Shown: piece after piece, positions 494-19,383 of the stretch
How the letters are laid out: each line of letters starts with the position of its first letter
Numbering within the stretch: position 1 is the stretch's first letter
NCBI GenBank assembly: GCA_019912845.1
Contig: JAIOHU010000194.1
Coordinates: 38,603-102,602, forward strand
DNA from: a bacterium
GTDB lineage: Bacteria; Electryoneota; Electryoneia; Electryoneales; Electryoneaceae
Length of the DNA: 64,000 nt
Direction of reading: 5' to 3'
Position numbers and translations under genes: made by a program
Notes under the pieces: generated by a model
What the model saw: the letters and a program-made list of their open reading frames with translations, nothing else
The model's database searches: none
Told to the model about the DNA's origin: nothing

Positions 494-2431
494 TCAATAC
501 GTCGCTTTTTTATCCCCCATCGCGAACCATTCTTCATAAATAATCTCTAAATTCGCTTCAGTCTGTTGCAGGGTGTCGCGTTTGATGTTGGCACGTTTGG
601 TGTTGCCTTTAGATTCCTCTTTTTCGATCTCAGAGGATAGCCGTTCACGTTGCTCCTCAAGTCTTTCGATCTCCTTCTCAAGAAAATCAAATCGTTCTTT
701 ATTGAATTTTAACTTGCGGAAACTTCGAACTCTGTTGCTTTTCTTTGTGTCAACGTTCTCTTCGACAATTTTTTCTTTAGACCTCTTTTTCTCTTCTGTA
801 TAGGCTTCAAAGAAATCCGAGAAATTTCCCTCGTACTGGACGATCTGAGGTGGATTGATATAGAGCACCAGCTCCACCATTTTATCGAGGAAATAGCGAT
901 CGTGGCTGATAACAAATATGGTGCCCTCGAACTCCTCCAAGGCATCTTCTACAACTTCACGGCTGCGGATATCAAGGTGGTTGGTAGGTTCATCCAGCAG
1001 GAGGAAATTTGGGTGACGGATCATCAGGGTTGCCAGTTGCAGACGTGCCTTTTCACCACCGGAAAGCACCGAAACCGGTTTATCGAGATCATCACGCGAG
1101 AAGAGAAAACGGTAGAGCAATCCCTCCGCCTCATTTCGAAGCAGACCACCCAGACGCATCGCTTCTTCGACCAGCGAATTCCCAAATTCGAGGTTCTGAC
1201 CCATTTGCGTGAAATAGCCGATTTTCATCGACTTTCCCACACGCAGGGTCATATTCTCCCAACGTCCCTCTGAAATAATATCATTGAAGAGGGTAGTTTT
1301 TCCTGTGCCATTTGCACCAACTAAAGCAACTTTATCTCCCTGGGCGATACGGAAGGTGGCATTTTCAATCAGCAGTTTGTCGTCACCATAGTCGCGTGAA
1401 TACTCATTCACATCAAGAGCGATATCACCTTTGGTACGTACCCCACCGAAACGAATACCCATCTTACGTTTATCCTCACGGATACGTTCGCCCGCGTCCA
1501 CTTCCATCTTTTCGATGCGACGTTCGAATTGTTTCGCAGTACGTGCCAATCGAGGATTATCATACACATCAGCCCAGCTTTTCAAACGATGAATCTGGAA
1601 TTGAAGACGTGCCCGCTCCTTCTCCATCCGTTTAACAGCACTTTCAGCTTTCTCGATACGAAGCAGTTTTTCGGCACGATAGGCTGAATAGTTTCCGGAA
1701 TACTCCTCTATTTTACCATAGTCCAACTCCCACATCTTACGGCAGGTGTTGTCCAGCAGGTAGCGGTTATGTGAGACCAGGATGAAAGCGTTTCGGGAGG
1801 CTTTGAGGACATTCTCCAGCCAATCCAACCCCTCAAAATCGAGGTGATTGCCTGGCTCATCCAGCAGCATGATGTCTGGATCCTGTACAAGAATACGTGC
1901 GAGACCGATTATATTTCGTTCACCACCAGAAAATGTGGAAATATCTCGTTCCCAATCGAATCGCTTGATTCCAAGCCCATCAAGCACACCTTCTACCTTC
2001 GCATCCGCTTTCCAGCCATCCCGTGTGTCAAAGATATCGTGCAGGTAAGCGTAACGATCCATCAGACGTTTATAATTATCCTGATCCTCTTCTAAGGAGG
2101 GATCAGCCAACTCTACTTCGATCTGCCGTAATTCCTCCTCTATAGAGTCGAGGGCTGCAATCCCCTCTCTTACCTCTTCATATAAAGTACGTCCAGGATG
2201 ATAGAGTGGGTCTTGCTTTAAGTATGCGATCCGAACGCCAGTAGTAGTAACAATATGCCCGTCTGTTGCCTCTTCGCTGCCTTCCAGCAGGCGTAGCAGG
2301 GTTGTTTTGCCAACACCATTTCGTCCAACCAGTCCGATGTGATCGCCACGGTTGATCTCTGTGGAGACAGAACGCAGGACTTCCTGGGCGGCGTATGATT
2401 TATGGAGATTATTTATTGTAAGCAGGCTCAT
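494..2431 (-). CDS. ABC-F family ATPase with two ABC domains and a C-terminal coiled-coil tail (Uup/EttA-like translation or DNA-associated factor)
   Basis: Two Walker A motifs (GRNGVGKTT, GANGTGKTT) and two LSGGE signature motifs. Two Walker B DEP motifs. No transmembrane domain. Lys/Glu-rich coiled-coil C-terminus. Confidence 0.85.
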   Translation of the reverse strand: MSLLTINNLHKSYAAQEVLRSVSTEINRGDHIGLVGRNGVGKTTLLRLLEGSEEATDGHIVTTTGVRIAYLKQDPLYHPGRTLYEEVREGIAALDSIEEELRQIEVELADPSLEEDQDNYKRLMDRYAYLHDIFDTRDGWKADAKVEGVLDGLGIKRFDWERDISTFSGGERNIIGLARILVQDPDIMLLDEPGNHLDFEGLDWLENVLKASRNAFILVSHNRYLLDNTCRKMWELDYGKIEEYSGNYSAYRAEKLLRIEKAESAVKRMEKERARLQFQIHRLKSWADVYDNPRLARTAKQFERRIEKMEVDAGERIREDKRKMGIRFGGVRTKGDIALDVNEYSRDYGDDKLLIENATFRIAQGDKVALVGANGTGKTTLFNDIISEGRWENMTLRVGKSMKIGYFTQMGQNLEFGNSLVEEAMRLGGLLRNEAEGLLYRFLFSRDDLDKPVSVLSGGEKARLQLATLMIRHPNFLLLDEPTNHLDIRSREVVEDALEEFEGTIFVISHDRYFLDKMVELVLYINPPQIVQYEGNFSDFFEAYTEEKKRSKEKIVEENVDTKKSNRVRSFRKLKFNKERFDFLEKEIERLEEQRERLSSEIEKEESKGNTKRANIKRDTLQQTEANLEIIYEEWFAMGDKKATY

Positions 2432-3020
2432 AATGATTCTGATGCGGTTTGAAAACCACCTGAAAGTTTAATTAAACTCAGCTAGTGCGGTCATCCCTGA
2501 TCTTCAGTTTGACTGCCAAATTGTAATCATACCTCATGCTCACTTCAAGTGGAGGTGATCCCTCATCCTCCCCCTTATGCATCAATGTATACCAATGCTG
2601 GCTTAAAAAATCAAACAAAACCTCGGCATGGCTAATCACTGAAGGCTTCAGGAAAATAGCATAAAACTCTCCTCCAGAGGCATTTTGTGAAAATAATGAA
2701 AGATTCTGCCTGGAATCTTCAAAATATCAATTTCAGAGTTAAAGTGAATGGTTCTCGATCTCTACTTTAATTTATTAGTGTATAGATAACAAGAGTTTAC
2801 ATATCGTTCTTCTCTAAAAAAACACTCCTAAGAAATTATAGCTTCAGGTTTAAGTTTTTTGAGTTTCCTGGCAAACTTCAAGTTAGTGCTAAGCTTTATG
2901 TTGCCAGTTTTATCTCAAATATTTCGCTTACTTTAACTTTTAACACCTTGTTTTCTTAAGGATTAATAAAAAAACTTAAAGTAAATGGTAAAGTTTACTT
3001 GTTAATGTGCTACTTTAAAT

Positions 3021-3047
3021 TAAAGTTACTATCAATCAATCCGATAA
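3021..3047 (+). promoter_or_regulatory. Sigma-28 (FliA)-type promoter upstream of the flagellin gene
   Basis: TAAAGTTA, 11-12 nt spacer, then tCCGATAA. This is a near-perfect match to the TAAAGTTT-N11-GCCGATAA consensus, ~70 nt upstream of the flagellin ATG in an AT-rich leader. Confidence 0.5.
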
Positions 3048-3116
3048 AGTTAATGTCAGGGAACGAAATAAGTTCGCAAGAGATCTTAAGCCCTACATTA
3101 GCAAGAGAGGTATGTC

Positions 3117-3953
3117 ATGAGTACAAGAATCAACCACAACATTCTCTCCATGACAGCGCAGAGAAACATGTGGGTCACCCAGAATGATATGGAGACTTCG
3201 ATCAATCGTTTGTCTTCAGGTCTTCGTGTTAATTATGCATGGGAAGATCCCGCAGGTCTCGCAGTCAGTGAAAGAATGCGTGCGCAAATTTCATCCATGG
3301 TTGAAGCAGAACGTAACGCCAACTATGATGTAAACTTGCTCGCAACTGCTGAAGGTGCGATGATGGTTATCGACGAAAAGTTGAACCGGATGCGTGCCCT
3401 ATCAGTACAGGCTTCAAATGGTGCCTTAACTTCTACCGATCGCGGTTACATCGACGTTGAATTCCAACAGTTGAAATCCGAGATCACAAGAATCGCTGAG
3501 ACCACCAATTACAACGGCTTGAACCTGATTGACGGTTCTTTCAGTTCCGGAACAGGGATCAAGTTCCACATCGGCACGTACAACACTGCCAACCAGGATT
3601 ACTACTATGTCAACATCAACAGTATGACAGCTGCATCCCTCGGGTTGGGATCAGCCAATCTGTTGACTACGACTACAGCTCAGTCTGCAATCCTGTCGCT
3701 CGACTCTGCGATCAACTCAAAAGACTCAGAGCGTACTCGAGTAGGTTCGTACGTGGAACGTCTGCAGAATACAATTCTTAACCTGCAGATCAGCCGTGAA
3801 AATGCGCAGGCGTCCGAATCTCAAATTCGTGACGCGGACATCGCCGAAGAGATGAGTAATTTCGTTCGTTCCCAGATTCTCTTCCAGACCGGCACATCGA
3901 TGCTGGCACAGGCGAATATGATTCCGCAGATCGTCTCTGGATTGGTCGGTTAG
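3117..3953 (+). CDS. fliC: Flagellin, short D0/D1-only type (278 aa)
   Basis: N-terminal flagellin signature (INHN...RLSSGLRVNYAWEDPAGLAVSERMRAQI) and C-terminal D0 helix (QILFQTGTSMLAQANMIPQIVSGL). AGAGAGG ribosome-binding site 8 nt upstream. Confidence 0.85.
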   Translation: MSTRINHNILSMTAQRNMWVTQNDMETSINRLSSGLRVNYAWEDPAGLAVSERMRAQISSMVEAERNANYDVNLLATAEGAMMVIDEKLNRMRALSVQASNGALTSTDRGYIDVEFQQLKSEITRIAETTNYNGLNLIDGSFSSGTGIKFHIGTYNTANQDYYYVNINSMTAASLGLGSANLLTTTTAQSAILSLDSAINSKDSERTRVGSYVERLQNTILNLQISRENAQASESQIRDADIAEEMSNFVRSQILFQTGTSMLAQANMIPQIVSGLVG

Positions 3954-3986
3954 TCGTAGCAAAGACGCTTGATCACGTCAGAATGG

Positions 3987-4026
3987 AAAACCTCATCCCT
4001 CTCAAAGGGATGAGGTTTTGTTTTCC
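3987..4026 (+). terminator. Rho-independent terminator after the flagellin gene
   Basis: 12 bp perfect stem AACCTCATCCCT / AGGGATGAGGTT with loop ctcaa, followed by a TTTTGTTTT run. Confidence 0.65.
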
Positions 4027-4290
4027 AGACATTTAGCATTCAGCATACACAGAGTCGAATTATTCCTGAAGTCGTTCAAGTTAATACCCCTTTCAATTCC
4101 AGATACAATCCATCAATCAAATATAAGCAAAGAACCAGAGGAGCACTCGTGGAAGGTTTGCCCTATCTGTTTTGGGGAACATTTCGCTTGTTATCGGTTG
4201 AAATTCCTTATATTCTCTAGTGTATTGAAATTGATAGAAGTATCTACGCTTTTCGCTGGAAAGCGTTTAGCAGCATAAGGGGAGGAATGA

Positions 4291-5289
4291 ATGAACATTC
4301 CGTATAAACATGTGAATATTGGTGGTGAAATATTTCGCGTACCAGATTTAGGCAAGATGTTTGGTGGCTGGTGGGTGATTATTCTCATCGTTATTGCACT
4401 CTGGATGGCTAGCGGTATTTATATCGTTGGTCCTGACGAAGAAGGGGTCATACGTACCTTCGGCAAGATGACGAGGATTCATTCGCCGGGCTTGCACTAC
4501 CATTTTCCATATCCTATCGAGCAGGTATTAAAGCCTAAGGTCACGGAAGTAAAACGTATTGAGATAGGATTTCGCAGTAGACGGGGAGGTCAGCCTCTGG
4601 ATGTTCCGGAAGAATCGCTGATGCTCACCGGAGGGCTGAATATCGTCGATATGGATTTCATCGTGCAATATAAAATTCAGGATCCGGTGAAATACTTGTT
4701 CTTCGTGCGTGATGTTCCGACCACCATGCGTATCGCCGCGGAAGCAGTGATTCGCCAGGTTGTTGGAAAACACAAAATTGATGAGGTATTAACAACTGGA
4801 AAAGGTGAGCTTCAGGCTGAAGCATTGCAATCACTGCAATCTATCCTGAACAGTTACGAGATCGGTGTGACGGTCACCCAGATTCAGCTCAAAGATGTCT
4901 GGCCTCCCAATGAGGTCGAGGATGCATTCCGTGAGGTTGCTTCTGCGAAAGAGGACCGTGCACGGTTGATTAATGAAGCACAGGGATATGAAAACAAATT
5001 GATTCCCAAGACGCGCGGTGAAGCGGCTGAGCAGGTTAAACAAGCAGAAGCGTATGCCGCAGAACGTGTCACACGTGCAGAGGGTGATGCAGCTAATTTC
5101 CTCGCAGTGTTGGAGCAGTATAGACGATCACCGAATGTGACAAGGAAACGTATGCTTTTGGAAACACTTGAAATTATTCTCCCGCGATTTAATAAGTATA
5201 TCCTGGACAGCAAAAATGGAGACCTGATAAATGTGGTTGGTTCTTCGCTTGCAAAAGAACCGAGTAGTGTGAAAGGGGGTTCACGATGA
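4291..5289 (+). CDS. hflK: HflK, SPFH/band-7 membrane protease modulator
   Basis: N-terminal transmembrane segment, SPFH domain, Ala/Glu-rich C-terminal coiled coil. Directly followed, with a 4 nt overlap, by an hflC-like paralog. Confidence 0.8.
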   Translation: MNIPYKHVNIGGEIFRVPDLGKMFGGWWVIILIVIALWMASGIYIVGPDEEGVIRTFGKMTRIHSPGLHYHFPYPIEQVLKPKVTEVKRIEIGFRSRRGGQPLDVPEESLMLTGGLNIVDMDFIVQYKIQDPVKYLFFVRDVPTTMRIAAEAVIRQVVGKHKIDEVLTTGKGELQAEALQSLQSILNSYEIGVTVTQIQLKDVWPPNEVEDAFREVASAKEDRARLINEAQGYENKLIPKTRGEAAEQVKQAEAYAAERVTRAEGDAANFLAVLEQYRRSPNVTRKRMLLETLEIILPRFNKYILDSKNGDLINVVGSSLAKEPSSVKGGSR

Positions 5290-6143
5290 CAAAGACCATG
5301 CGAACTCTTATAGGGATAGTAATTGCTGTATTCCTGGTATCACTGGTTACTTATACAGTGGATGAAACCGAGCAGGTTATTATTCTTCAATTTGGTAAAC
5401 CGGTGGGTATGGTGAATAACGCTGGCTTGAAATTCAAGTTGCCGCCACCTTTTAATACGATTGAGCGATTTGAAAAAAGATTGCTCATTTATGATAGCCC
5501 TCCAAACATTGTGGTCACACAAGACAAGAAAAACCTGGTCGTAGATTCGTATGCCAGGTGGCAAATTGTTGATCCATTGCTTTTCCGGCAGACTGTACGT
5601 ACAGAGTCGGGAGCACAGGCTCGTCTCGACGATATTATCTATTCCGATCTTCTCCAGGAATTAGGGCAGCACGAGATGGAAGAAGTTGTAAGTGAAAATC
5701 GTGAAGACATCATGGTAGCTGTTACCAGATATGCAAATGAAAAGGCTAAAGATTTCGGGCTGGAAATCCTGGATGTTCGCATCAAACGTACCGACCTCCC
5801 TCGTGAAAATGAAGATGCTATTTTCCGTAGAATGAGAGCGGAACGGATGCGTATTGCAAATCTCTACCGGTCTGAAGGTGAAGAGGAAGCTCTCAAGATT
5901 CGGGCTGAAGCGGACAAGCAGATTAAAGTTATCATGGCGGATGCTTACAAAGAATCCCAGATTCTTCGCGGTGAAGCAGAGGCCATTGCGGTGAAAACAT
6001 ACGCCGATGCTTTCAACAAGGATCCAGATTTTTACGAATTCTTTAGAACACTTCAGATGTACGAGAACGCTTTAGATGAGAATACAACTCTCGTATTGCC
6101 GCCTGATTCGGAGGTATACAAATACCTGAAATCGAGCAAATGA
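5286..6143 (+). CDS. hflC: HflC, SPFH/band-7 membrane protein
   Basis: N-terminal transmembrane segment and SPFH domain. Paired with the upstream hflK by an ATGA overlap. Confidence 0.8.
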   Translation: MTKTMRTLIGIVIAVFLVSLVTYTVDETEQVIILQFGKPVGMVNNAGLKFKLPPPFNTIERFEKRLLIYDSPPNIVVTQDKKNLVVDSYARWQIVDPLLFRQTVRTESGAQARLDDIIYSDLLQELGQHEMEEVVSENREDIMVAVTRYANEKAKDFGLEILDVRIKRTDLPRENEDAIFRRMRAERMRIANLYRSEGEEEALKIRAEADKQIKVIMADAYKESQILRGEAEAIAVKTYADAFNKDPDFYEFFRTLQMYENALDENTTLVLPPDSEVYKYLKSSK

Positions 6144-8980
6144 ACAATTCGTATATACGAAAATTACGCTGGTTAAATTTTTCCGTCAACCGGTTTGGAA
6201 CATTGCATGGCGATTTTCAGCTTGCACCAGACCGGTTAACGGTATTGCACGGTGAAAATGAAGCGGGTAAAAGTACATTTGTTGCTGCGCTTCTGGCTGT
6301 CTTATACGGTTTATCTGACCAGGAGGCAGGTGTGCGTCCACAAAGGACGCATTTCCTGCCCTGGGAGGGTGACAGTTTTAAGGCTACTCTCGGGTTTGGC
6401 TGGAATGACCGCATTTTCAGGATCGATCGGAACTTCAGGGATCAAACAGTTCATTTGATGACTGAGTCTGGTGAAAATTCCGATCATCTGGTGAGCGAAC
6501 ATGGTAATATGGATGGCATCGGATATCTGCTCACTGGTGGCTTTACACCTGAAGTCTTCATTAAAAGTTTTATCGTACCACAAGAACAGGCTGCCCTGAT
6601 TTCGAGCCCGGGGGAACTGGCAGAAAAAGTCCAAGCATTGACACGGATTTCACCCGGAAGTTCAGCGACTCAATCAGCACGTCAAATTCTCCAAGAGCTT
6701 ATAGGATCAGCAGAAAATTCTGAGGGAGAGGGTACTTCCATTCTCACAGAGAAATATCGCCTCTCCCAAAATATGACGAAGTTACTCGAAGAGCATGCGT
6801 CACTGGTACAGCTCAAGAAAGAAGCAGACCATGTTGTGCGTGATCTGATAGCTCTCGAAAATGAACGAGTAACGCTGAAAACTCGTTTGAAAAGCATTCG
6901 TCGTGGTATTTTACTGAATGAAAAGAAAGACCTTGAATCCCGCCATGATGATATCCTGAATCACACAAAACGTCTTGAGACGCTTCAGGAGGAAGAGGCG
7001 GAATACAAGGATGCCGCACATATCACTTCCAACCTTGAGAAAAAGTTTACCCAGGTTTATGAACGATATCGGGAAGCTGCCGCTACTGCTGAAGGTGCTG
7101 TTCAGGAACGGCAGAAACGGCATGACACGTTTGAATCTGAAAAAGGTAAGATAACAGAATTCTCAAATCTTACTGAATTTGAAATCGAAGAGCTGGATGA
7201 TCTCAGCCAGAATCTTCATCTTTGGAAAAATCTGAACGAAAAACGAGCACGTATTGAAGAGGAATTGGATAAAGAGAAGGAGAACCTGGCAGGACGAGGT
7301 ATCTTTGCCAGACGACTTGAACTTGTTCAGGCGAACTTCCAGATACTTTCGGAAGAAACTCTCCTGGAATATGATCGGCTGGTAGCCGAGCACGATCAAG
7401 CTGAAGCGGAACTAAGGCAAGCTGATGAACGGGTTGCCAAAACCCAACTACCAAAACGAAAAATACGACTGACTCCTTTTGCCATAAGCATCGCATTGAT
7501 TGCGCTGATCGCAGCAATAGGCTCGGCATTGGAGTGGAAACTCGCACAAAATGAACTGGCTGCATTGATGGTTACCAGTGTAGCTGTAATTCTTGTTGTG
7601 GTGCTTGGTGTGCTAGAACATGTAACTTTCCAGCATTCAGCTCGTCAATCCAAACGTGAGCTTTCAGAATCTGAGAAAAAGTTAACCAGGATAGAAAAAA
7701 ATCTCGACTCACTGGCGATTTCAATAAATTTAAAAAATCACGATGAATTACGAAGTTTGCTGTCGGACTCACGCGATCTCTCCGGTGTCGGCAGCAAGTA
7801 TTTTGAGGTTAAAGCAGTCCATGATGATGCGCTTCACGAGCTTGAGTCCGTTGGTGAAAAGATACGTCCCTACCTTGAGGAAGCTGGTGTTATCGGTGAA
7901 GGTGAAATGCCAACCAGGGGCGAAGTGGACGGTTTTGCAGTGCATGTTGCCAATTATCGCAAGGCATTGGAAAAATATCGGTATGTAGAGAATCTTTATA
8001 CGAGTTCATTGGAAGAAGAACGTCGGGCTGCAGACAGAGTGGCTGGCTTCTGGAACGAGTTACAATCGATCTTCACAGAAGCAAAAATCACAGAGCGGGA
8101 AGAAGTTGAACAAGCAGCTAAAGAGTTTAATGTACTGAGTAGCCGTGCTCAACATTACCGAGATATCAGTGAGCAAATCACAACGCTACAGTCTGACGCT
8201 GGCGAAGAGGGAATGCTGAACGCTCTGAAATCCCGCCTTGAGGATACATACCGATACCTTGCCCAATTGGATGATGTAGCTGCAGAACCGGGGACAGTCA
8301 TTCAGCTTCATGAGCTCGAGGAGCAGCTTCAGGACAGACTGCATGAACTGACCCGTGATCTTTCCGATGAACGGGCGCACTTGACTATGCTACAACAGAA
8401 AATTTACCCGGCAATTCATCGTGCTGAACATCAACTAGCTTCAACTCGGAAATTGATGGAAGAAATTGAAATTAAAATCCATGCTCTAACTATTGCCGCA
8501 GATACCTTAAAAAATATAGAGAGCGACGTATTCGATAAGCTCTCGACCATGCTGAACGAAAAACTGCAACCGATTCTCGCTGAACTTGTGCCAAGATGGA
8601 GTGAAGCAACATTTGACAAAGACCTGAACCTGACAGCAAAGGATCGTCAAACAGGAAAAAGCATTTCAGCAGCGAAAGTGCAAAGATTATTGTCTGCAGG
8701 TGCCAGAGATTCGATCTTCCTGGGAGCGAGGTTGGCATTGAGCGACTATCTCGCTGGCGGCTATGTGGATGCACCGTACATCTTCGACGAACCTTTCGCT
8801 CACCTGGATGACAACCGATTCCGTACCGGAATGGATATGCTGATACGTCAGGTGAAAAATGGAAAGCAGGTGATCGTGTTGACCTGCCACAGTGGAAGGC
8901 ACAGAGAGTGGCTGGATCATCTGAACGTTGAGTTAAGGGATTCGGTACAAATGATGGAAATTGAGAGGGAGCTGGCATGA
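6140..8980 (+). CDS. Membrane-anchored Rad50/SbcC-like coiled-coil ATPase (YhaN/SbcE-like)
   Basis: N-terminal P-loop (GENEAGKST) and Q-loop (PQEQ). C-terminal Walker B (YIFDEPFAHLD), H-loop (LTCH) and a degenerate signature (LSAGARD). About 700 aa of coiled coil is interrupted by two hydrophobic helices (AISIALIALIAAIGSAL and LMVTSVAVILVVVLGVL) where a zinc hook would normally sit. 4 nt overlaps with both neighbouring genes. Confidence 0.7.
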   Translation: MNNSYIRKLRWLNFSVNRFGTLHGDFQLAPDRLTVLHGENEAGKSTFVAALLAVLYGLSDQEAGVRPQRTHFLPWEGDSFKATLGFGWNDRIFRIDRNFRDQTVHLMTESGENSDHLVSEHGNMDGIGYLLTGGFTPEVFIKSFIVPQEQAALISSPGELAEKVQALTRISPGSSATQSARQILQELIGSAENSEGEGTSILTEKYRLSQNMTKLLEEHASLVQLKKEADHVVRDLIALENERVTLKTRLKSIRRGILLNEKKDLESRHDDILNHTKRLETLQEEEAEYKDAAHITSNLEKKFTQVYERYREAAATAEGAVQERQKRHDTFESEKGKITEFSNLTEFEIEELDDLSQNLHLWKNLNEKRARIEEELDKEKENLAGRGIFARRLELVQANFQILSEETLLEYDRLVAEHDQAEAELRQADERVAKTQLPKRKIRLTPFAISIALIALIAAIGSALEWKLAQNELAALMVTSVAVILVVVLGVLEHVTFQHSARQSKRELSESEKKLTRIEKNLDSLAISINLKNHDELRSLLSDSRDLSGVGSKYFEVKAVHDDALHELESVGEKIRPYLEEAGVIGEGEMPTRGEVDGFAVHVANYRKALEKYRYVENLYTSSLEEERRAADRVAGFWNELQSIFTEAKITEREEVEQAAKEFNVLSSRAQHYRDISEQITTLQSDAGEEGMLNALKSRLEDTYRYLAQLDDVAAEPGTVIQLHELEEQLQDRLHELTRDLSDERAHLTMLQQKIYPAIHRAEHQLASTRKLMEEIEIKIHALTIAADTLKNIESDVFDKLSTMLNEKLQPILAELVPRWSEATFDKDLNLTAKDRQTGKSISAAKVQRLLSAGARDSIFLGARLALSDYLAGGYVDAPYIFDEPFAHLDDNRFRTGMDMLIRQVKNGKQVIVLTCHSGRHREWLDHLNVELRDSVQMMEIERELA

Positions 8981-10158
8981 GTATTCGTATACTTCAGGCT
9001 TCTGGTCTCAAGCTGGGTGCACCAGTGCTGCCATCAGGACACGGCTTTAGTGAGGATATCGTACGTCAACGCGAAGCTCTCCAGAATAGCCTGCTGAGCA
9101 GAATCGTAACAATTGCACAGGATCAAAATGTTGATTTATTGATCCTTAATGGTGATTTATTCGATTTTTCATCATTTTGCCTTCCAACAATACGTTCAGT
9201 TATCTCCACCCTTAACACTATTCAGGAGACGGCAGTTGTTATTGTTCCTGGTGTGTCGGACAACTTGAGCGAACTAAGCCCTTACAAGGATATTGTGTCA
9301 ACTGCCCTCGGATTAAATTGGGGAGAACATCGTCATATCTTAAGCGATGTACGGTATTCTAACCTCAGTATCGAAACACTCCCCGACCTTATGATTTCAT
9401 TCTATTCTGATGCTGAGAGTACTATTTTTGAATCACAACCTGCCCCCGTTGAAGGAAAGATAAACATTCTGGTTTGCCCAAGTGCAGGGAATGGCAAGGT
9501 AGATTTAAATCAATATAACAAAGCGGGTTTCCAGTGGGTTATCGTTTCCGGGAGTGGATACGAAGAGGTCTTCTCAAATGAGACTGGTGACGTTCTTGCA
9601 GTAGATTCCGGTGAAGTCTTCCAGAACAGTTTTGAGCATCCTGGGAGTGGGAAAGTGGCGGTGTATGAAGTAGATGAAAATGGGATCAAGAAAGACACCC
9701 TCGATTATCACACAATCGATCCGACAAAATTGTTAACCATTCAGGTCGATCTTCCCCTCGAATATGATGATCAGACTATAGATGATATCATTAAAACGCA
9801 GATTGAAAAGCTGGACGTCACATTTGAAGATATCTTATGGATAAAATTCACAGGGAAACATATTGAAGGTCCTTTCGCTCGCTTTGAAATAAATCAATCA
9901 TTGAACTGTAATGCGTTTTTTATCGATACGAGTTCTGTTGAATTCCCTGGATTGGAAAAGATTGCTGTAATGGGGGATGTCATTCCTGAGATTGCCGAAC
10001 GTTTTCAACTCGCTCTGGAACTTAAGCTGGAAAAAGCCGGCTTAGCCGAATCTGAAAAAGTTGCCTTGCGAACCCTGGCATATCAGTATGGGATATCAGC
10101 TCTACGGGGAAAAACCCCTTATCCCTTTGGGGAAAGTAGTAAAAAGAGCACCGATTAA
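8977..10158 (+). CDS. Mre11/SbcD-like calcineurin-fold phosphoesterase with degenerate metal-binding motifs (YhaO/SbcF-like, probably inactive)
   Basis: The N-terminus is collinear with SbcD, but motif I reads ILQASGLKLG where SbcD has ILHTSDWHLG. Motif II GDLFD is retained. Motif III is GVSD instead of GNHD. Translationally coupled to the ATPase. Confidence 0.55.
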   Translation: MSIRILQASGLKLGAPVLPSGHGFSEDIVRQREALQNSLLSRIVTIAQDQNVDLLILNGDLFDFSSFCLPTIRSVISTLNTIQETAVVIVPGVSDNLSELSPYKDIVSTALGLNWGEHRHILSDVRYSNLSIETLPDLMISFYSDAESTIFESQPAPVEGKINILVCPSAGNGKVDLNQYNKAGFQWVIVSGSGYEEVFSNETGDVLAVDSGEVFQNSFEHPGSGKVAVYEVDENGIKKDTLDYHTIDPTKLLTIQVDLPLEYDDQTIDDIIKTQIEKLDVTFEDILWIKFTGKHIEGPFARFEINQSLNCNAFFIDTSSVEFPGLEKIAVMGDVIPEIAERFQLALELKLEKAGLAESEKVALRTLAYQYGISALRGKTPYPFGESSKKSTD

Positions 10159-10257
10159 GAAGAAGAAATCATTTGGATTCGTTAACACGGTTTTGCACGC
10201 TGAACAATACCTTCTAATTTGATTATTAAACTTCAAGTGCAGGAATAAATTACAATT

Positions 10258-11016
10258 ATGATGAGCAATGAGCCAACATCTCTTCCCGATTCAGGAAGCA
10301 CACCAACATCCAAACTCAAACAAATAAGACAGTGGTTCCTGACCGGTCTGGTCTTCCTTGGTCCTTTGGTTTTGACGATCTGGATTGTCATAAAACTGTT
10401 TCTGCTCACAGACAGTATACTTGGTAAACCAATCCGCCTTTTTCTCGCAGAAGTATTGGACCTTCAGTATTTCAAAGAGGGGACGATTTATGGAATTGGC
10501 TTTTTTGTTTTAATGGGAATCATTTTGTTAGCGGGATGGTTTGCACGTCAATACCTCGGAGTTCGGGTTGCGGGTGTCATCAAATCAACGGTGCAGAGAA
10601 TTCCGTTGGTGAACAAAGTTTACCTCGCGATCTTTCAGATATCCGAAGCGTTACTCGGTGGTCAAAAGGAAGTATTCAAGCAGGCTGTTTTGATAGAATA
10701 TCCACGTAAAGGAACTTACTGCATTGGATTTATGACACAGGATACTCGCGGTCCCATTCAAGATGCCATAAAAGAAGATGTAATCAGTATATTTTTACCC
10801 ACTACTCCAAATCCAACTTCTGGATTCCTTTTGTTTTATCCCAAGACAGATGTGGTACTGTTGCACGTGTCAGTTGCTGAAGCGCTCAAACTTATCATTT
10901 CTGCAGGTGCTGTTGTACCTGAATCACAACGTGGGAGACCTGTTACTGCCAGCCAGGCTGGAATTATTTTTGATCCGCCCGGTTCACCTCCCAATGACAA
11001 GGAGGGGAAGGCGTGA
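10258..11016 (+). CDS. DUF502 family inner-membrane protein
   Basis: Two N-terminal transmembrane helices and the conserved PTTPNPTSGFLL motif typical of DUF502/COG2928. Confidence 0.7.
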   Translation: MMSNEPTSLPDSGSTPTSKLKQIRQWFLTGLVFLGPLVLTIWIVIKLFLLTDSILGKPIRLFLAEVLDLQYFKEGTIYGIGFFVLMGIILLAGWFARQYLGVRVAGVIKSTVQRIPLVNKVYLAIFQISEALLGGQKEVFKQAVLIEYPRKGTYCIGFMTQDTRGPIQDAIKEDVISIFLPTTPNPTSGFLLFYPKTDVVLLHVSVAEALKLIISAGAVVPESQRGRPVTASQAGIIFDPPGSPPNDKEGKA

Positions 11017-12860
11017 GGAGAAGTAGGTTTAGACTACTACTCAACCTGCTTTTACTTATCTTCTCAACCGCAACAGCGGCAAATGATTCACTTTATACCC
11101 GTTTCAGCCAGGAACTGGATACACGTATTTTACAGACCAGAGGCAATTACTCAGTATCAGATTCCACCCTTCACCTCCAATCAAGTGCCTACAGTAAGAT
11201 AACCCTGCGTCAGCTTCCTGGATTTGAACCACAATGGAAACGAGACCTCGGGCTGTCGCTCACTTCCACCAGATTTCTATCCCGGAATTTTGATCTTCTT
11301 TTTGAACTTGAAGGCAGTAATTTTCAGGATCAGGAAGCTCCGGAAAGAGTGCAGAAAGGCGGTGTCTCGCTGCATCCTTATGATCTCCGTCCACTCACTG
11401 ATGGTTCACGTCTGGTGACCGGTCAGAACAGTAAAATTACACGGGGTGTCTTGCGTGGAGGAGTATCATACAACCGATCAACGACCCTGCGAAGTACAAT
11501 GCTGGTGGGAGGAGCGTACGATGAGGAGCTGAAAGGTTCAGGTTCCGGTCCATCCATGCGAGGTGATTTTAAACTCCGTCCAATTGATGACCAGAATATC
11601 CAATTCGGCGGGAACGGTTATATCAATTTGTATGACGACCGACGATATCATGATCTCACATTAGATAATTCAATCGTTCGTGATTTTGGTGATGCAACTG
11701 ACCTTTTTGAAGCAAGCTGGCGCAATCGAAGAAGCGATATTTACCTGGGGCTGGAGGGAAATATCGTCAGTCGTGTACATGATGAACTCAGCTTGAGGAA
11801 TCGTCTCAGCACTCCTTTGAGTGAGGACATGAATGGGGTTTACGACCTTGATTTTCGTCGGTCTAATGTCTCCTATCGTGGTGTTGGTCCTGGTGAAAGC
11901 AGGGAGAATGATCTGGTACATCGTCTCGCCTGGATTTATGCACCATCAATCTGGCAGACCATGCTGCAATACAATTTTGCCGTTGAGGATCGGGACTATG
12001 GCGGCACCTTGACGCTGGGAAGAAGGCAGGAGCTGGAGTTGATTACATCCCGAAATAGCGACAAAGACAGCCTGACAGTAAAACTGGGCACAGAAAAACG
12101 ACGTTATGACTCCCCCGACAGCCTTGAAACCAATGACAGAGATCGCCTGGTTCATCATGCTGAGCTGGTTGGTGGGAGATGGCTGACCCCCTGGGTCTAC
12201 ACAGCAGTTGAAATTTCAGTAATACTTGACCATCTTGTATACATTAAGCAGGAACGTTCAGCGGACAATCACTGGAATCGCGTTATCGCATTACGACCTA
12301 TTGTACAATGGTTTCCTGCTGACGGATGGAACAACACAGCTTCTTTTGAAGTTTTAGCTAACTACAGCGTATATGATTTTGAGAGCATGGATGCACGCTC
12401 CGGGATTCGTAGTCGGGTGTTTAGAAGATGGTCTGCTGCCGACACTCTGACCCTCCCCCTGGGAGGACGTGTTCAATTGTCTCTATCCGGACGATATGAT
12501 CTTGAGGAACGGGGAAGGATTATCTGGGATGATTTTGTCCAGGACCTTTCCGACAAAGCCCGGGTGGGATTCGCTGCCACTCACCTTGAATATATATTTC
12601 TCTCAAGACTTCTCTTGAAAATTGGTTACCGTTATCAGAAACGAGTGGAAGAAAGCTTTGAACAAAGCGATATTGTTTTGCAGCAAAATCAGACAGATCG
12701 AACTTATATCAAACGAGGTCCCTCGCTTCGAGTACAAACCTTGTTCAACAGATCATGGCGATTGCTGGTAGATGGAGATTTTCAAACGATTGATGACAAC
12801 CAACGTGAATCTACTGAAACCCTTAATACGGTTTACGTCACCCTTGTTTACCAGTGGTAG
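11013..12860 (+). CDS. Secreted outer-membrane beta-barrel protein, hypothetical
   Basis: Signal peptide (LLLNLLLLIFSTATAAND). Alternating beta-strand-like pattern. C-terminal aromatic residue (YQW). 4 nt overlap with the DUF502 gene. Confidence 0.5.
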   Translation: MRRSRFRLLLNLLLLIFSTATAANDSLYTRFSQELDTRILQTRGNYSVSDSTLHLQSSAYSKITLRQLPGFEPQWKRDLGLSLTSTRFLSRNFDLLFELEGSNFQDQEAPERVQKGGVSLHPYDLRPLTDGSRLVTGQNSKITRGVLRGGVSYNRSTTLRSTMLVGGAYDEELKGSGSGPSMRGDFKLRPIDDQNIQFGGNGYINLYDDRRYHDLTLDNSIVRDFGDATDLFEASWRNRRSDIYLGLEGNIVSRVHDELSLRNRLSTPLSEDMNGVYDLDFRRSNVSYRGVGPGESRENDLVHRLAWIYAPSIWQTMLQYNFAVEDRDYGGTLTLGRRQELELITSRNSDKDSLTVKLGTEKRRYDSPDSLETNDRDRLVHHAELVGGRWLTPWVYTAVEISVILDHLVYIKQERSADNHWNRVIALRPIVQWFPADGWNNTASFEVLANYSVYDFESMDARSGIRSRVFRRWSAADTLTLPLGGRVQLSLSGRYDLEERGRIIWDDFVQDLSDKARVGFAATHLEYIFLSRLLLKIGYRYQKRVEESFEQSDIVLQQNQTDRTYIKRGPSLRVQTLFNRSWRLLVDGDFQTIDDNQRESTETLNTVYVTLVYQW

Positions 12861-12867
12861 ATCAAAC

Positions 12868-14229
12868 TTGCTCCGCGCTCTATCCCAGCTAAGCTATGCA
12901 CTAATTCTCGTTCTCTTTATTCCCTGCATCTCTTCCGCACAATCCACTCCCGCGGTTATTGATACCATCATCATAGAAGGCAATCGCACGACAAAATCGT
13001 TTGTCATTCTCAGCGAAATGAAGTTAAGCTCGGGAATGGTTGCAACACCTGAGTTGATCGATCAGGACAAGCAACGCTTGGAATCATTAGGATTATTCAG
13101 CCGTGTAGAACTCTATCCTGGAACTATCGGTAATGAACAGGCATTAATTGTCGAAGTCACTGAGCTCTGGTATATCTGGCCTGGTATCTACCTCGAAATT
13201 GATGAAGAAGAAATTGAAAATCTGCAACGAACCGCGTATGGTGGTCATATCAATCACGATAATTTCCGTGGAAGACGTGAACACCTTTCCCTGATCGGGT
13301 TTACCGGCTACCGACGTGGTGGGCAGGCTCGTTGGAAAATCCCCTATCTGTTTTCCACAAGAGAGTGGGGTATGAATGTTGAGATGAAGTGGATGGAGGA
13401 GGATGAACCTGGGATTCTGGCAGAACGTGAGGATATAACCTCGCTGTCACGTTCACTTAGAGCCAGCCTGGGAAGAAGACTAAATCTGGAATCCAGCTAC
13501 TCGATCAGCAGTTCCATCGAAGAGCGTCAGTTTTACGAACGAAATGTTGAGAATGGCAGTGAATATGTTGAGCCGGATACAGACAACGATATTCTTTTCG
13601 AGCTGACCGGTGGTTACCACTATGATACACGCTATTATAACCCCTGGCCTACACAGGGGGTCAACCTCGATATCTCCTTTAGCGTTTCAAATAGTCTGAA
13701 CAGTGGAGATGTTTTATATGTCCGTCCCCTGCTTTCGCTCTCGGCGTACAAATTGGTCGCTCCACGGATTTATCTGGCTGGCAGAATTTACAGTCTGGCG
13801 ACTTTTGGCAGCTCTCCGGTTTTTCGTCGCTACATCATCAACAGACTGAAATCTGTGCGAACCTCAGCAGAACGGAGTCTGGAAGGGGATCGTGCTCTGT
13901 TGCTGCAGTCAGAAGTACGATATGACATCATCGATCGAACCTATCTAACCCTCTGGGCACCGTGGAAACTGCAACGTTACACCCGTAACCTCAAATTTGG
14001 TGTTTCCGTTGCAACCTTTGTTGACTATGGTGTCGTAGATGGTGTACACGGTATATATGATCCAGCGAATAAGCCAGACCGTTATTATGCGGGGTGGGAA
14101 GCGGCGTACGGCGCGGCATTGGTCTTTCATGTGCCCTATCGGGATATCATAAGATTCGAAGTATCTCGAAGCGCACGTTTTCCCGACAGTGGTTACCTTT
14201 TCAAGCTTCGGATTGGACCTGCTTTTTAG
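12868..14229 (+). CDS. Omp85/BamA-superfamily outer-membrane protein with a single POTRA domain
   Basis: POTRA-like segment (IIIEGNRTTKSFVILSEMKLSSGMV...LESLGLFSRVEL) followed by a beta-barrel region. The proposed TTG start at 12868 places the signal peptide (LRALSQLSYALILVLFIPCISSAQ) at the N-terminus. The ATG at 12772 would put 58 aa ahead of the signal peptide. Confidence 0.55.
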   Translation: MLRALSQLSYALILVLFIPCISSAQSTPAVIDTIIIEGNRTTKSFVILSEMKLSSGMVATPELIDQDKQRLESLGLFSRVELYPGTIGNEQALIVEVTELWYIWPGIYLEIDEEEIENLQRTAYGGHINHDNFRGRREHLSLIGFTGYRRGGQARWKIPYLFSTREWGMNVEMKWMEEDEPGILAEREDITSLSRSLRASLGRRLNLESSYSISSSIEERQFYERNVENGSEYVEPDTDNDILFELTGGYHYDTRYYNPWPTQGVNLDISFSVSNSLNSGDVLYVRPLLSLSAYKLVAPRIYLAGRIYSLATFGSSPVFRRYIINRLKSVRTSAERSLEGDRALLLQSEVRYDIIDRTYLTLWAPWKLQRYTRNLKFGVSVATFVDYGVVDGVHGIYDPANKPDRYYAGWEAAYGAALVFHVPYRDIIRFEVSRSARFPDSGYLFKLRIGPAF

Positions 14230-14410
14230 TTCATACTGGAGCGCCACACTCCAGTGTGGCAATTTCTTTGGCTTTTGACAAGTCCAAATTCAACCATCAA
14301 ACCATGCAAGTTGTTCCCCAAGCGGTGTTTTAGGGTCTTCTAAACTCCAAGAAATCCATAGTTTTATAGGTTTTTGCGTTGCCACGAACGGTTTAACCCT
14401 CACTGCTAAT

Positions 14411-14641
14411 TTACAGAAAACTGTTCAAAACATCTGTGCTCATATCAGCTTGGTGAAGTATGCTTTTCAGGGTTCCTTTTTTCAAGTCTTTATTGTGATA
14501 TGGAACGGTAACTGTAAGTTCTGGTCGTTCTGGATGAACCAGAGAGATGTGACTGCCTTGCTGATAGTCAACCTCAAACCCAGCTTTTCTAAGGGCACGA
14601 AGTAATTGTCTTGGTGTGATAACGGGAAGTTTTGGACTCAT
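14411..14641 (-). CDS. hicA: HicA toxin (YcfA-like mRNA interferase)
   Basis: 76 aa with PRQLLRALRKAGFEV...QGSHISLVHP, the hallmark of HicA/YcfA. Confidence 0.8.
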   Translation of the reverse strand: MSPKLPVITPRQLLRALRKAGFEVDYQQGSHISLVHPERPELTVTVPYHNKDLKKGTLKSILHQADMSTDVLNSFL

Positions 14642-14644
14642 CTC

Positions 14645-14881
14645 CTACACCGCCACTGCCAACTTATCGCGTAGTGGCATAGATTCTTGTATATCTTCAG
14701 GTATGGGTAATCCCCGTTTTATTAGTGATGCAATATGGCAACGGATTGCATCTTTTGCCATCTCTTTTGCTTCATCAAGGGTATCCCCTTCGGTGACCAG
14801 TCCCGGCAACGCAGGAATCGTGACAATATATCCGCCTTCCTCTGCCAGTTCAAAGATCGCCGTATATTCCTTTTCTACCAT
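14645..14881 (-). CDS. hicB: HicB-type antitoxin (UPF0150 fold, no DNA-binding extension)
   Basis: 78 aa, YTAIFE...EEGGYIVTIPALPGLVTEGDTLDEAKEMAKDAI pattern of HicB. Lies 3 nt upstream of hicA on the same strand. Confidence 0.7.
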   Translation of the reverse strand: MVEKEYTAIFELAEEGGYIVTIPALPGLVTEGDTLDEAKEMAKDAIRCHIASLIKRGLPIPEDIQESMPLRDKLAVAV

Positions 14882-14986
14882 AGTATTCTCCGTAGGCGAT
14901 AGTAATCATCCTATTAATATAGCAAATGATTGATTGTTTGAACAGATGTTACCAGAAACAAGATCAGAATCGATAAGGTTATTCCC

Positions 14987-15460
14987 ATCCACAATTTCCG
15001 CAATATCCGTGGGTGTTGCGGGAAAACCACAATAATTTGATCCCCTTGCGTAGAAAGATTTGCGTAGCCCTGCGATGTAGCGAAGCGAAACCCGGGGAAC
15101 AGAGGTGCCCTTAACTCAGGGTGGCCCGGGGATGAGAGCAATTCTACTCCACAAAGTGACGAATGTATAGACTTTCAAAACCCCAATATCATTTGTATTC
15201 ATACTCATCCCCGGGTTTCATTCTTTAAGGAGTGTCTCTCTCCAGTCTGGCTTGATCCACCCCGCGTCATGCCAGCATGCTTTTAGCTGGTATCCAGGAG
15301 TAAAATGAATATCCCCGTGTTCCGCAATATCCGAAGATGTTGCGGGAAAATCATTCATCCATTTTATAATAGAAGTGTGCAATTGAATTTGTCCCTTATA
15401 CCCGATGCAAAACATCGGGGCATCTTGGTGAATCACCCCAAGCCAAATCCCAAAAACATC
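14987..15460. repeat. Cluster of genome-specific intergenic hairpin repeat modules (D, CCGCAA hairpin, F and E modules)
   Basis: Module D (tgcgtagccc...gaagcgaaacccgggga...ggggatgagagcaattctact...catactcatccccggg) matches 45581-45730 and 45941-46090. The hairpin cccgatgcaaaacatcgggg matches 45792-45810. Module F at 15263-15299 matches 62995-63031. Confidence 0.6.
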
Positions 15461-15833
15461 ATTTATTTCCCGCAATTCATTGAATTTGTCACAATAGTAG
15501 TGGTATATATTAATGTAGAAACCAACTCGTGTGAAGTGTTCGTTCTGGTACGGGTAACTATTAGGGGGAAATCTTCTTTGTCTTCTATGAAAGGGGCTGA
15601 CACGCCCCTTTCGATCCCCAAAATGATCCAATCGGGTATTTTTGCTAAGATATTTAACGGGAATAAGCGCGATACCTGTAGCAAGCTACAGGTCATCCGT
15701 CGCGAATATTTAATTCGTTGAATGATATAGGATTTATATAAACAAGCCATTGACTTTATTGTGGATCAAGAGTAAACTATTTACAAGATTGCAAAGGATT
15801 ATTGGAATCAGTTATTATTTGCGGGGGTATTTT

Positions 15834-18800
15834 ATGAATCGGATCAAAAGAATATTCACAGTGATCTGCATCCTATTATCATTTGGCAGTAGTATGGCGC
15901 AGGATAGTCTGAACATTAGCATGCTGGGTAGTTTATACAACAATTGGGATCTATCTGCTGATCTTTTTATCGTCGATACTTTGGTGTTTATCGCAACAAC
16001 TGGTAGTGGTTTAAGGATTTTAGACATCCGTAATCCTGGTTCTCTTAATGAGCTTGGTTTTTGTTATACGCCGAGCAATGCCTACGATGTCGCAGTTGCT
16101 GGTGAATATGCATATATCGCAGATGGAAGCGAAGGGCTTTGTGTTGTTAACGTGAGTGATCTGGAAAATCCAGTAGTCGTTGGTTCATTCGATGAACCCG
16201 AGTGGGTTGAAGGTGTGGCAGTTCATGGAGGGTATGCTTACCTGACAGATTTTTATCAAGGAATGTGGATAGTTGATATCAGTGATCCGCAGAATCCTTT
16301 TCAGGTTAGCTATATAATTTCCCCCGATCATTCGCAGGATATCGCAGTTGTTGAAGATTACGCCTATGTCGCCATCTGGGATGAGGGATTATGGATAGTT
16401 GATATCAGTGATCCGGAAAACCCTGAAGAAGTTGCAACCCTCAGAACCCGTGATTCAGCTCGGGATGTTACTGTGTTTGACGGTTTTGCTTACATAGCTG
16501 ATAACGAAGCGGGTCTCTTTATCGCTGATGTAACTGATCCCGAAAATCCCATCGAAGTTGGCTCCTATGATACTCATGGTCGTACCAGAGGTGTAGCTGT
16601 CACAGAGAACTACTCATTTATCGCAGACAGTCGGGGAATGCGAGTGATTGATATCACCCAGTTGGAAAACCCTCTGGAGGTCGGATTTTACGATTCAATG
16701 TCTCGTACCACCAGCCTTGTCATCTCAGATTGGATCGCTTTTATTTCTGATGAGGTTGGTGGCCTTCGAGTTGTTAATGTACACGATCCTGAACAACCCA
16801 TTGAAATAGGCAGTTATGACACACCAGCATGGGCACGAGAGGTAGTGGTACAGGGAGAATATGCTTTTATCGCGCATGATGAAGGTGGGCTTCGAGTAGT
16901 TGATATAAGGAATGGAGAGAATCTGTTCGAAGCAGCATTCCTCACTTTTCGTCGACCAGCAATGAATATTGATTTGCAGGGGGATTACGTATATGTGGGT
17001 ACTTCTGATTGGGAGCGGGAAGAAGGCGGTCTTAGAATTGTCGATATCAGCAACCCAGTTGCACCTGATGAAACTGCTTTTTTCGATCTAGAAGAGGTGG
17101 TCAGTGATCTTGCAGTTTCAGAAGGGATCGCATTTGTCGCTACAAATGAAACTGATCTTCATATCTTGGATGTATCTGATCCCGAAAATCCATCAGAAAT
17201 CAGCCAACTTTACCTGCAGGGAAATGCTAGCAGTGTTGCAGTTGAAGGAAATTTTGCTTACGTCGTAGCTGCTGGTCTCAGGGTGGTTGATGTAGGCGAC
17301 ATTCAAAATCCTGTCGAAGTAGGGTTTTACAATCCGGTTGGCAACAATATTAGACATGTTGCTGTTTCGGGAGATATAGCTTACATTGCTGAGAGAGGTC
17401 TCAAAGTATTAGATGTCAGTAATCCAGAAAACCTCGTCGAAATTGGGGCGTTCAACGCACCAGGATCAATCCGGAATATTACTGTTGTAGACAGTTATGT
17501 GTTTGTCGCTTATTCCTGGAAACTTAGCACATCCGGTGGATGTCTACGTGTGATTGATGTCAGTGACCCAACACACCCAGAACAAACGGGATTTTACAAA
17601 ACTCCAGGTATTGCAAACAATGTTTGTGCCGTAAACCAGTTCGCTTATGTGGCGGATTCCTACCATTTTGAAGTTTATGACTGTTCCTATGCAATTGATT
17701 GGCCGGATACTGCCAGTGTATCTGGAATCGTAATTGATGAAGAAACCAGTGAGGTTATCTCCGGAGCTGTAGTGTCTTTCGATGAACATCAAACTTCCAC
17801 AAATGAAAATGGTGAATACAACTTCACCCTCCTTTCTCCTGATAATTATTCTGTAGATGCTTATGCTCTGGACTACGAACCATTTCATGCTGGAAGAGTA
17901 CAGCTTGAATCTGGGGAGAACACTTATAATTTTTCTATGCGAAAGAATGAAAGTTTAAATATCGAAATCCTCTCGATGATCGAGTCTCACTACTACAACG
18001 AAGCTGTGGCAATCGAAGGCGATTTTGCATATGTGGCGGATCAGGATTCAGGATTACGCGTTATTGATGTTTCTGATCCGCAATTCCCAAGAGAAATTGG
18101 TTTTTTTCCCGCAAATGACGCATTTCGCGGTGTCGTTGTGTCAAATGGTTACGCTTATCTTGCTGACCACGGAGCAGGATTTCGTATTGCTGATGTCAGT
18201 GATCCAGAAATTCCTGTTGCAGCAGGATCTCTTGCCACGCCAAACCGAGCAAATAAAGTCGTCGTAGAGGGAGATTATGCATACATAGCAAATACCTATG
18301 ACGGTTTGCGTATTGTCAATGTGAGTGATGCGGCAAATCCTGTGGAAATAGGTGTCTGCAATACACCTGACTGTGCGCTTGATGTAGTAGTCGGGGAAGG
18401 TTTCGCGTATATCGCGGATTATAATGAAGGTTTACGGGTGATCGATATTCATGATCCAGCAATTCCGGTTGAAATCGGCTATTTTACAACAGATGATGAA
18501 TGCGCAATTTGCGTTACTGTTGATGGGAATTATGCCTATGTTGGATATGGTATGGATGGGCTTCGCGTCCTTGATATTAGAAATCCGGCTAACCCTGTAG
18601 AAATTAGCCATTATCAAACACCGGGTCGTGTCTACTGCATCAAAGTTGTTGAAAACTTTGCTTTTATTGCTGATTTTTACGATGGATTAAGAGTGCTCGA
18701 TATCAGCGATCCCACCAATATTGCAGAAACAGGTTTTTATAATACGCCAGGAACAGCCCAATGGGTCGAAATTGAAGGTAACCTTGCGTATGTCGCTGAT

Positions 18801-19151: not shown

Positions 19152-19383
19152 GGTAAAAGCTGGCTCGGGGCTTTGGGCTTCTGGCTTTTAGAAGACTTTA
19201 ACACCCTTCTCAACATCAACTACATCAGTGCTGGCGCACTGAGTCTTGTCTGGTTCCCCGCCTACGCGGGGATGACGAGGCGGACAAGGCTTTGGGCTAT
19301 TGGCTTCGGTTCCGCACGCAACTTCTTCAGATGTCGCAGAACGAAGAGTAACTGGGAGGCACGATGTAAACGGAAAAAATTGC

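Follow-up and report, generated by a model that had tools for sequence, protein, structure and literature searches.

The window analysed here is a 64,000-nucleotide stretch of contig JAIOHU010000194.1 (positions 38,603 to 102,602 of the forward strand, GenBank assembly GCA_019912845.1) from a bacterium of the Electryoneaceae, in which the genes hflK and hflC are followed on the same strand by genes for a 946-amino acid (aa) ATPase and a 393-aa phosphoesterase-fold protein. It is proposed that the last two genes encode an SbcEF-type pair, a Rad50/SMC ATPase and an Mre11/SbcD-fold subunit, in which a membrane hairpin at the apex of the coiled coil would replace the zinc hook; that the pair belongs to the YhaN/YhaO (SbcE/SbcF) family, as a divergent representative, is, on sequence comparison, very probable. 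The complex would be anchored in the inner membrane by its coiled-coil apex, with the ATPase heads reaching into the cytoplasm, and with the dimetal site of the Mre11-like subunit gone, the complex would not be a nuclease; at most it would act as an ATP-driven, membrane-tethered binding or tethering clamp that does not cut, presumably with DNA as its ligand by analogy. The pair would have entered the site between hflC and a DUF502 gene, ATPase first, in the ancestor of a Calditrichota/Electryonea-like lineage; this site lies inside a conserved envelope operon reaching from hflKC to an Omp85 gene, and the pair would thereafter have been co-transcribed with hflKC and lost from one subclade. We favour this mechanism as a whole, a membrane-anchored SbcEF-type complex of a seven-gene envelope operon that binds or tethers but cannot cut, with moderate confidence. 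An earlier sequence-only reading had seen in the four genes a candidate for an undescribed system, but the pair belongs to a family known from Bacillus subtilis (PMC2811018); what is new here is the reversed gene order, the placement of the pair in an hflKC operon in one lineage and the pseudo-nuclease of the window genome. The coordinates of the four genes were confirmed in the window and lie as follows:

4291-5289, + strand: hflK, 332 aa (TIGR01933, Band_7, hydropathy)
5286-6143, + strand: hflC, 285 aa (TIGR01932, hydropathy, ATGA overlap with hflK)
6140-8980, + strand: YhaN/SbcE-like Rad50/SMC-type ATPase, 946 aa (Pfam AAA_23/AAA_27, motifs, AlphaFold2, Foldseek)
7475-7612, + strand: predicted transmembrane hairpin of the ATPase, aa 446-491 (Kyte-Doolittle, AlphaFold2)
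8977-10158, + strand: Mre11/SbcD-fold protein with degenerate motifs, 393 aa, an orthologue of YhaO/SbcF-type phosphoesterases (alignment, AlphaFold2, Foldseek)

The ATPase scores above the Pfam gathering thresholds for AAA_23 and AAA_27 (PF13514; 30.8 bits versus 22), and all 19 of its database matches carry PF13514, which we take to be the YhaN-type domain. It matches the C-terminal lobes of Rad50 in the PDB (E 3e-5) and stays below threshold against the NCBIfam Rad50 models (50.8 and 34.6 bits versus cutoffs of 700-1000). Alignment with 15 relatives revealed that its ATPase motifs are all kept, including Walker A (GENEAGKST), Q-loop (VPQEQ), signature (LSAGARDS), Walker B (IFDEPFAHLDD) and H-loop (LTCHS). 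The AlphaFold2 (AF2) model (predicted local distance difference test, pLDDT, 79) places the head lobes at approximately aa 1-190 and 820-946 and the helices of the arms at about aa 201-436 and 475-816, which by inference from the model would pair in antiparallel fashion. A Foldseek search of the PDB returned Rad50 (7zr1_C) as the top match, followed by SMC proteins. At the midpoint of the protein, the position of the zinc hook in Rad50/SbcC, lie two hydrophobic segments (aa 446-464 and 473-491, with Kyte-Doolittle peaks of 2.31 and 2.87) that coincide with AF2 helices at aa 446-468 and from aa 475 onward; they are joined by a loop of 8 residues and carry basic residues on either flank. Because of these flanking basic residues, the heads and arms are predicted to be cytoplasmic under the positive-inside rule. 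C916 is the only Cys of the protein, which lacks a CxxC hook, and no CxxC was found in any of the five ATPases of the clade. The Rad50/SMC-like nature of the ATPase and its own transmembrane (TM) hairpin, both suggested by the sequence-only reading, are thus upheld by Pfam, motifs, AF2, Foldseek and hydropathy. No record matched the exact ATPase sequence, and an identical hflC was found only in short Logan contigs; identical fragments of the hflKC-ATPase region occur in samples ERR477402 and SRR15661998.

Relatives of the ATPase place it within the YhaN/SbcE class. In RefSeq plasmids they are annotated as 'YhaN family protein' and preceded by a 'DNA repair exonuclease', and 38 of the 40 relatives possess a strong midpoint hydrophobic segment (at least one, mostly two). 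On this comparison, a predicted membrane hairpin in the absence of a zinc hook characterises the YhaN/SbcE family as a whole and is not linked to HflKC. SbcE (YhaN) of B. subtilis is an SbcC-like protein without CxxC, with a conserved central domain, hydrophobic and insoluble (PMC2811018); its gene adjoins that of the SbcD-like YhaO (SbcF), and SbcE is involved in double-strand-break repair and transformation (PMC2811018, Krishnamurthy et al. 2010). The window pair resembles SbcE/SbcF in its SMC/SbcC-like ATPase with long heptad arms, AAA_27 and a hydrophobic centre replacing CxxC, and in its adjacent SbcD/Mre11-like gene. It differs in that the ATPase gene comes first here, whereas the nuclease gene comes first in B. 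subtilis, and in its position after hflKC, its nuclease subunit without metal-binding motifs and its sequence identity of no more than 34% to any relative. With canonical SbcCD/Mre11-Rad50 the pair shares the Rad50-type ABC head lobes, the antiparallel helical arm predicted by the model and an Mre11-fold partner that includes C-terminal helices of the kind binding the Rad50 coiled coil; in contrast, its apex is a TM hairpin without a zinc hook, dimerisation or tethering would take place in the membrane, and the nuclease active site of the window protein is destroyed.

The YhaN/SbcE class was seen in Bacillota, Chloroflexota, Nitrospirota, Planctomycetota, Sumerlaeota and Pseudomonadota as well as in the lineage of the window, which is of the Fibrobacterota-Chlorobiota-Bacteroidota (FCB) type with type IX secretion system (T9SS) substrates and whose nearest named HflC relatives belong to Ca. 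Electryonea clarkiae and Calditrichaeota. The whole class would appear to be a membrane-tethered analogue of Mre11-Rad50 with the TM hairpin as its hallmark; it is widespread and little studied, and this general point may outweigh the adjacency to HflKC. In the searchable open-access literature, only PMC2811018 was found for membrane-anchored SMC-like proteins, links between SPFH proteins and nucleases, or TM segments in YhaN. Several Clostridia-type loci (L013, 12344-13066; L046, L069, L070 and L094) have a second Metallophos gene of about 230-240 aa after the ATPase gene, giving the order nuclease, ATPase, small phosphoesterase.

The second protein of the pair retains the fold of its family and has lost the catalytic site. 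Taken alone, the window phosphoesterase has no Pfam match and falls below the cutoff of TIGR00619 sbcd (22.9 bits, cutoff 77.65); it matches its orthologue from L001, a relative of the same lineage, by tblastn (E 4e-37). A 15-sequence family profile matches SbcD/Mre11 structures in the PDB at E 5e-25, the AF2 model has a pLDDT of 83 and a predicted template modelling score (pTM) of 0.79, and the top 50 Foldseek matches in the PDB are all Mre11/SbcD. The Mre11-like identity suggested earlier for this partner therefore stands as an Mre11/SbcD fold, based on profile, AF2 and Foldseek. The protein was aligned with 18 relatives spanning at least six phyla and compared with them at five motifs, which provide the metal ligands and the catalytic His of calcineurin-like phosphoesterases (Pfam PF00149, Mre11 structures):

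Motif I: D-x-H in the relatives, G-x-K in the window protein
Motif II: GD in the relatives, GD in the window protein (retained)
Motif III: GNHD in the relatives, GVSD in the window protein (Asp retained; Asn and His lost)
Motif IV: His in the relatives, Pro with an adjoining deletion in the window protein
Motif V: GHxH in the relatives, GSGY in the window protein (both His lost)

Only the GD of motif II and the Asp of motif III survive in the window phosphoesterase, while the five motifs are present in each of the 18 aligned relatives, the His of motif III being replaced in two of them. Those two replacements are GNED in L113 (11015-12229) and GNRD in L002 (4710-5915), with the remaining motifs intact. 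With nearly all metal-binding and catalytic residues lost, the nuclease machine envisaged in the sequence-only reading is unlikely in the window, whose phosphoesterase is in all likelihood a dead nuclease as judged from its motifs. The calcineurin-like phosphoesterase fold is known in a pseudo-enzyme, Vps29 of the retromer, which has kept the fold, lost the metal ligands and serves as a structural subunit. The window phosphoesterase, which likewise keeps the fold without the metal ligands, resembles such pseudo-enzymes by analogy only.

No close relative shares this degeneration. A word-based search of 5.8 billion proteins with the window phosphoesterase found only itself, and in 1.84 billion representatives searched exhaustively with HMMER no protein exceeded 33% identity to it; the ten best full-length HMMER matches are all canonical, as are the nearest relatives P0141-P0151. 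A more distant HMMER match, P0152, is independently degenerate, with the motifs SDVLL, GNLWD, GKMD and GGAS and no motif IV His. From P0152 it appears that loss of catalysis may recur in the YhaO-like phosphoesterase family. The phosphoesterases of the clade share 43-46% identity among themselves, compared with 24-27% between the window protein and the clade, and the ATPase shows no acceleration comparable to that of its partner.

This divergence could mean that the pair is a non-functional remnant heading for loss, as has happened in a sister subclade. The lost catalytic motifs on a branch about twice the length of those of the orthologues, the lack of any close relative among the 5.8 billion proteins and the dispensability of the pair in the L027/L029/L031/L115 clade are consistent with decay, which we nevertheless judge improbable: both open reading frames (ORFs), of 946 and 393 codons, are intact and show normal in-frame codon usage, the ATPase motifs are unimpaired, the phosphoesterase model is confident and shows the full fold with the conserved C-terminal helices, the stop/start overlaps between the genes are kept, and the degenerate P0152 suggests that non-catalytic versions can persist. 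The C-terminal helix motif A-x3-G-x2-A, invariant in the family, is also kept by the window protein. Because the ORF is intact, the codons are normal, this C-terminal motif is kept and divergence is raised, our reading is of relaxed or shifted constraint on a phosphoesterase subunit that is probably still made and would no longer be catalytic. A same-operon comparison of lineages with an intact nuclease (L025, L032 and L114) with the window, where it is dead, could help to separate tethering from cutting.

The identities of the first two genes are those given in the sequence-only reading. HflK passes the equivalog model TIGR01933 (265 bits versus a cutoff of 159, E 5.8e-79) and HflC passes TIGR01932 (219 bits versus a cutoff of 134, E 6.8e-65). 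Hidden Markov models (HMMs) built from HflK and from HflC detect each other at E 1e-9 to 1e-13. By hydropathy each protein has a single N-terminal TM helix (aa 29-47 in HflK, aa 7-25 in HflC) followed by the SPFH domain. They resemble the HflKC of the E. coli HflKC-FtsH complex in passing these models, in this layout and in the 4-nt overlap of hflK and hflC, and differ from it in having an SbcEF-like pair, DUF502 and Omp85-type genes downstream. The window genes scanned, which were only part of the ORFs, included neither ftsH nor hflX.

The pair is part of a larger collinear block, whose remaining features are as follows:

3991-4024, + strand: terminator-like hairpin, CCTCATCCC / loop / GGGATGAGG followed by the T-run TTTTGTTTT, read from the sequence 3' of a flagellin gene
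10258-11016, + strand: DUF502 inner-membrane protein (Pfam PF04367, E 1e-30)
11013-12860, + strand: conserved 615-aa protein without a Pfam family (Pfam scan, synteny)
12772-14229, + strand: Omp85/POTRA outer-membrane protein, last gene of the likely unit (Pfam Omp85 and POTRA)
14231-14259, + strand: terminator-like hairpin with an 11-bp stem and a T-rich tail, directly 3' of the Omp85 gene (consensus scan)

Each of the three junctions between the four genes is an ATGA overlap (5286-5289, 6140-6143 and 8977-8980), as the sequence-only reading had noted, and the start codons of all four match the N-termini of their orthologues. Among the gene overlaps of bacterial operons, those of four bases are the most frequent, and three in succession therefore point to an operon with possible translational coupling; the fixed stoichiometry also read from them is not shown by the three ATGA overlaps alone, and that between hflC and the ATPase gene occurs only in the window genome. 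A ribosome-binding site (GGGGAGG) lies 5 nt 5' of hflK, and a gap of 99 nt separates the phosphoesterase gene from the DUF502 gene. The hairpin at 3991-4024, which was not listed by the consensus terminator scan, is probably the 5' limit of the transcription unit. Given the two flanking hairpins and the lack of any internal promoter or terminator signal above shuffled controls in the consensus scan (which found fewer sites than in the shuffles and is thus uninformative on internal promoters), a seven-gene transcription unit from 4291 to 14229 is likely, and the pair would almost certainly be co-transcribed with hflKC. An Rfam scan of 2400-15800 gave no match. The ORF at 11013-12860 runs 89 nt into the Omp85 ORF, whose true start is probably further downstream. 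Directly 5' of hflK, across a spacer at 3954-4290, lies the flagellin gene (3117-3953), in a genome with many T9SS substrates; in most sampled relatives hflK is preceded by a conserved gene of about 250-325 aa without a Pfam family, and the upstream neighbour is not conserved.

We compared this arrangement across the lineage, with contexts anchored on HflC relatives. The order hflK-hflC-ATPase-phosphoesterase occurs in five lineages, namely the window, L001/L025, L032, L113 and L114, and in four others (L027/L028, L029/L030, L031 and L115) hflC is directly followed by DUF502 at 7-48 nt and the pair is absent. The order proposed for this locus is thus conserved in four other lineages, but the overlap is not: in the four orthologous loci hflC and the ATPase gene are spaced by +3, +63, +37 and +13 nt. 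The genes hflK, hflC, DUF502, the 615-aa gene (always between the DUF502 and Omp85-family genes in the sampled lineage) and Omp85 are collinear throughout, L114 excepted, and hflK-hflC-DUF502-615-aa-Omp85/POTRA forms a tightly spaced block even without the pair (L027, L029, L031 and L115). L114 (7001-14025) keeps hflK-hflC-ATPase-phosphoesterase and lacks DUF502, which is present in all eight other lineages. In a neighbour-joining (NJ) tree of HflK plus HflC rooted on L113, the most distant lineage, the four empty lineages form a single clade, and the most parsimonious history would be ancestral presence of the pair followed by one loss. Recent horizontal acquisition was considered and rejected: in GC content and codon usage the pair does not stand out from its neighbours, so any transfer would be old. 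Co-expression with HflKC is likely and old in the lineage.

Outside this lineage the arrangement is different. YhaN-like loci from other phyla numbered 101, 21 from species-representative genomes and 80 from metagenomes; in the metagenome scan, matches to the generic Walker A pattern predominated; it added no other member of the window's clade, and its 80 distant loci served as the negative control for adjacency to SPFH genes. An SPFH ORF within 8-10 kb was found by the HflK/HflC HMMs at none of the 101 loci, whose neighbours are unrelated housekeeping genes. The phosphoesterase gene lies upstream of the ATPase gene in 88 of the 90 other loci with enough upstream sequence, as in B. subtilis, whereas the window partner overlaps the ATPase gene and lies downstream; the inverted order, ATPase then phosphoesterase, is unique to the window's lineage.

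These contexts bear on the idea, raised in the sequence-only reading, of a four-component membrane module for sensing DNA ends or foreign DNA in an HflKC microdomain; an HflKC ring would then corral the ATPase hairpins as it does FtsH. The overlapping or tightly spaced genes, a gene order kept across five lineages whose HflC identity falls as low as 55-59%, the inner-membrane location of HflK, HflC and the ATPase alike and the inverted order unique to the lineage are all what such a module would predict. We nonetheless consider it unlikely. A dedicated HflKC-ATPase machine is disfavoured because no such association is seen elsewhere in the family (0/101), because hflKC is unchanged where the pair has been lost, hflC and DUF502 there lying 7-48 nt apart, with no feature of the HflK cytoplasmic tail tracking the presence of the pair between occupied and empty lineages, and because the hflC/ATPase overlap is confined to the window genome. 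Moreover, the whole seven-gene block is syntenic, which makes positional retention the default, and the nuclease of the window is in all likelihood dead.

The geometry argues the same way. The SPFH and coiled-coil domains of E. coli HflKC are periplasmic (PMC12005517), and with the SPFH domains periplasmic by this homology and the ATPase heads predicted to be cytoplasmic, contact would be limited to the TM helices. That the ATPase hairpins sit inside an HflKC ring, as FtsH does, lies for us between unlikely and improbable. A version in which the SbcE-like ATPase is a client or partner of HflKC, its hairpins held in the SPFH corral as a microdomain DNA tether or sensor that is here nuclease-free, is likewise improbable. 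The searchable open-access literature was found to contain no report connecting HflKC with an SMC-like ATPase. We infer that the pair has no dedicated physical partnership with HflKC; the complex in an HflKC microdomain proposed from the letters alone is disfavoured by the absence of SPFH genes from the outside loci and by the sister subclade that keeps hflKC without the pair. The adjacency would be a lineage-specific curiosity, and a new SPFH-nuclease system is unsupported by current evidence.

Several points weigh against our proposal of an SbcEF-type complex that resides in the hflKC operon without partnering HflKC and does not cut. The pair has been kept directly 3' of hflC in five lineages over a divergence that leaves HflC at 55-77% and the ATPase at 21-38% identity, and such persistence after hflC is also expected from a real functional link. 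Among the sampled genomes of the lineage, no pair was found away from hflKC. The internal branches of the NJ tree are short, and a single loss is only the most parsimonious history. The family comparison drew on Firmicutes relatives from metagenome-assembled genomes (L013, L014 and L018-L021) and RefSeq 'YhaN family' plasmid proteins, B. subtilis entering by published description. Finally, the degenerate phosphoesterase may retain a residual or altered activity.

The pair was also compared with SMC-like anti-phage or foreign-DNA defence systems such as Lamassu, Wadjet or MADS. PADLOC gave weak matches to mad3 (E 4e-11) and LmuB (E 2e-10), the pair has a patchy distribution and a higher rate of evolution than its neighbours, and one plasmid relative has Fic and HipA genes next to it. 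However, the PADLOC matches are partial (41 and 38 bits) and reflect generic SMC-head similarity, no neighbouring gene matches a PADLOC model, and the partner genes of Lamassu, MADS and Wadjet (JetC) are not nearby. Nor does the setting suit defence: the pair resides in a chromosomal housekeeping envelope operon, its relatives in other phyla also have unrelated housekeeping neighbours, the viral-contig scan found no relatives, and nuclease effector activity would not be expected of the window protein given its motifs. A defence role is, in our judgement, very improbable for this locus. The plasmid relative just mentioned, L116 (Sphingorhabdus plasmid NZ_CP022549.1, 1611-12213), has a 'DNA repair exonuclease' and a 'YhaN family protein' beside an AAA ATPase, Fic and an HTH/HipA toxin-antitoxin-like pair, a context closer to a defence or addiction island than that of the window.

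Elsewhere in the window, at least seven paralogous genes for LVIVD-repeat beta-propeller proteins lie at 15750-28053, 46538-48745 and 51153-54221. Most of them have CarboxypepD_reg domains and a T9SS Por_Secre_tail signal, and five are consecutive on the + strand. A small SLOG/LDcluster4 (Lysine_decarbox-like) gene at 28658-29179 lies between the LVIVD cluster and mltG.

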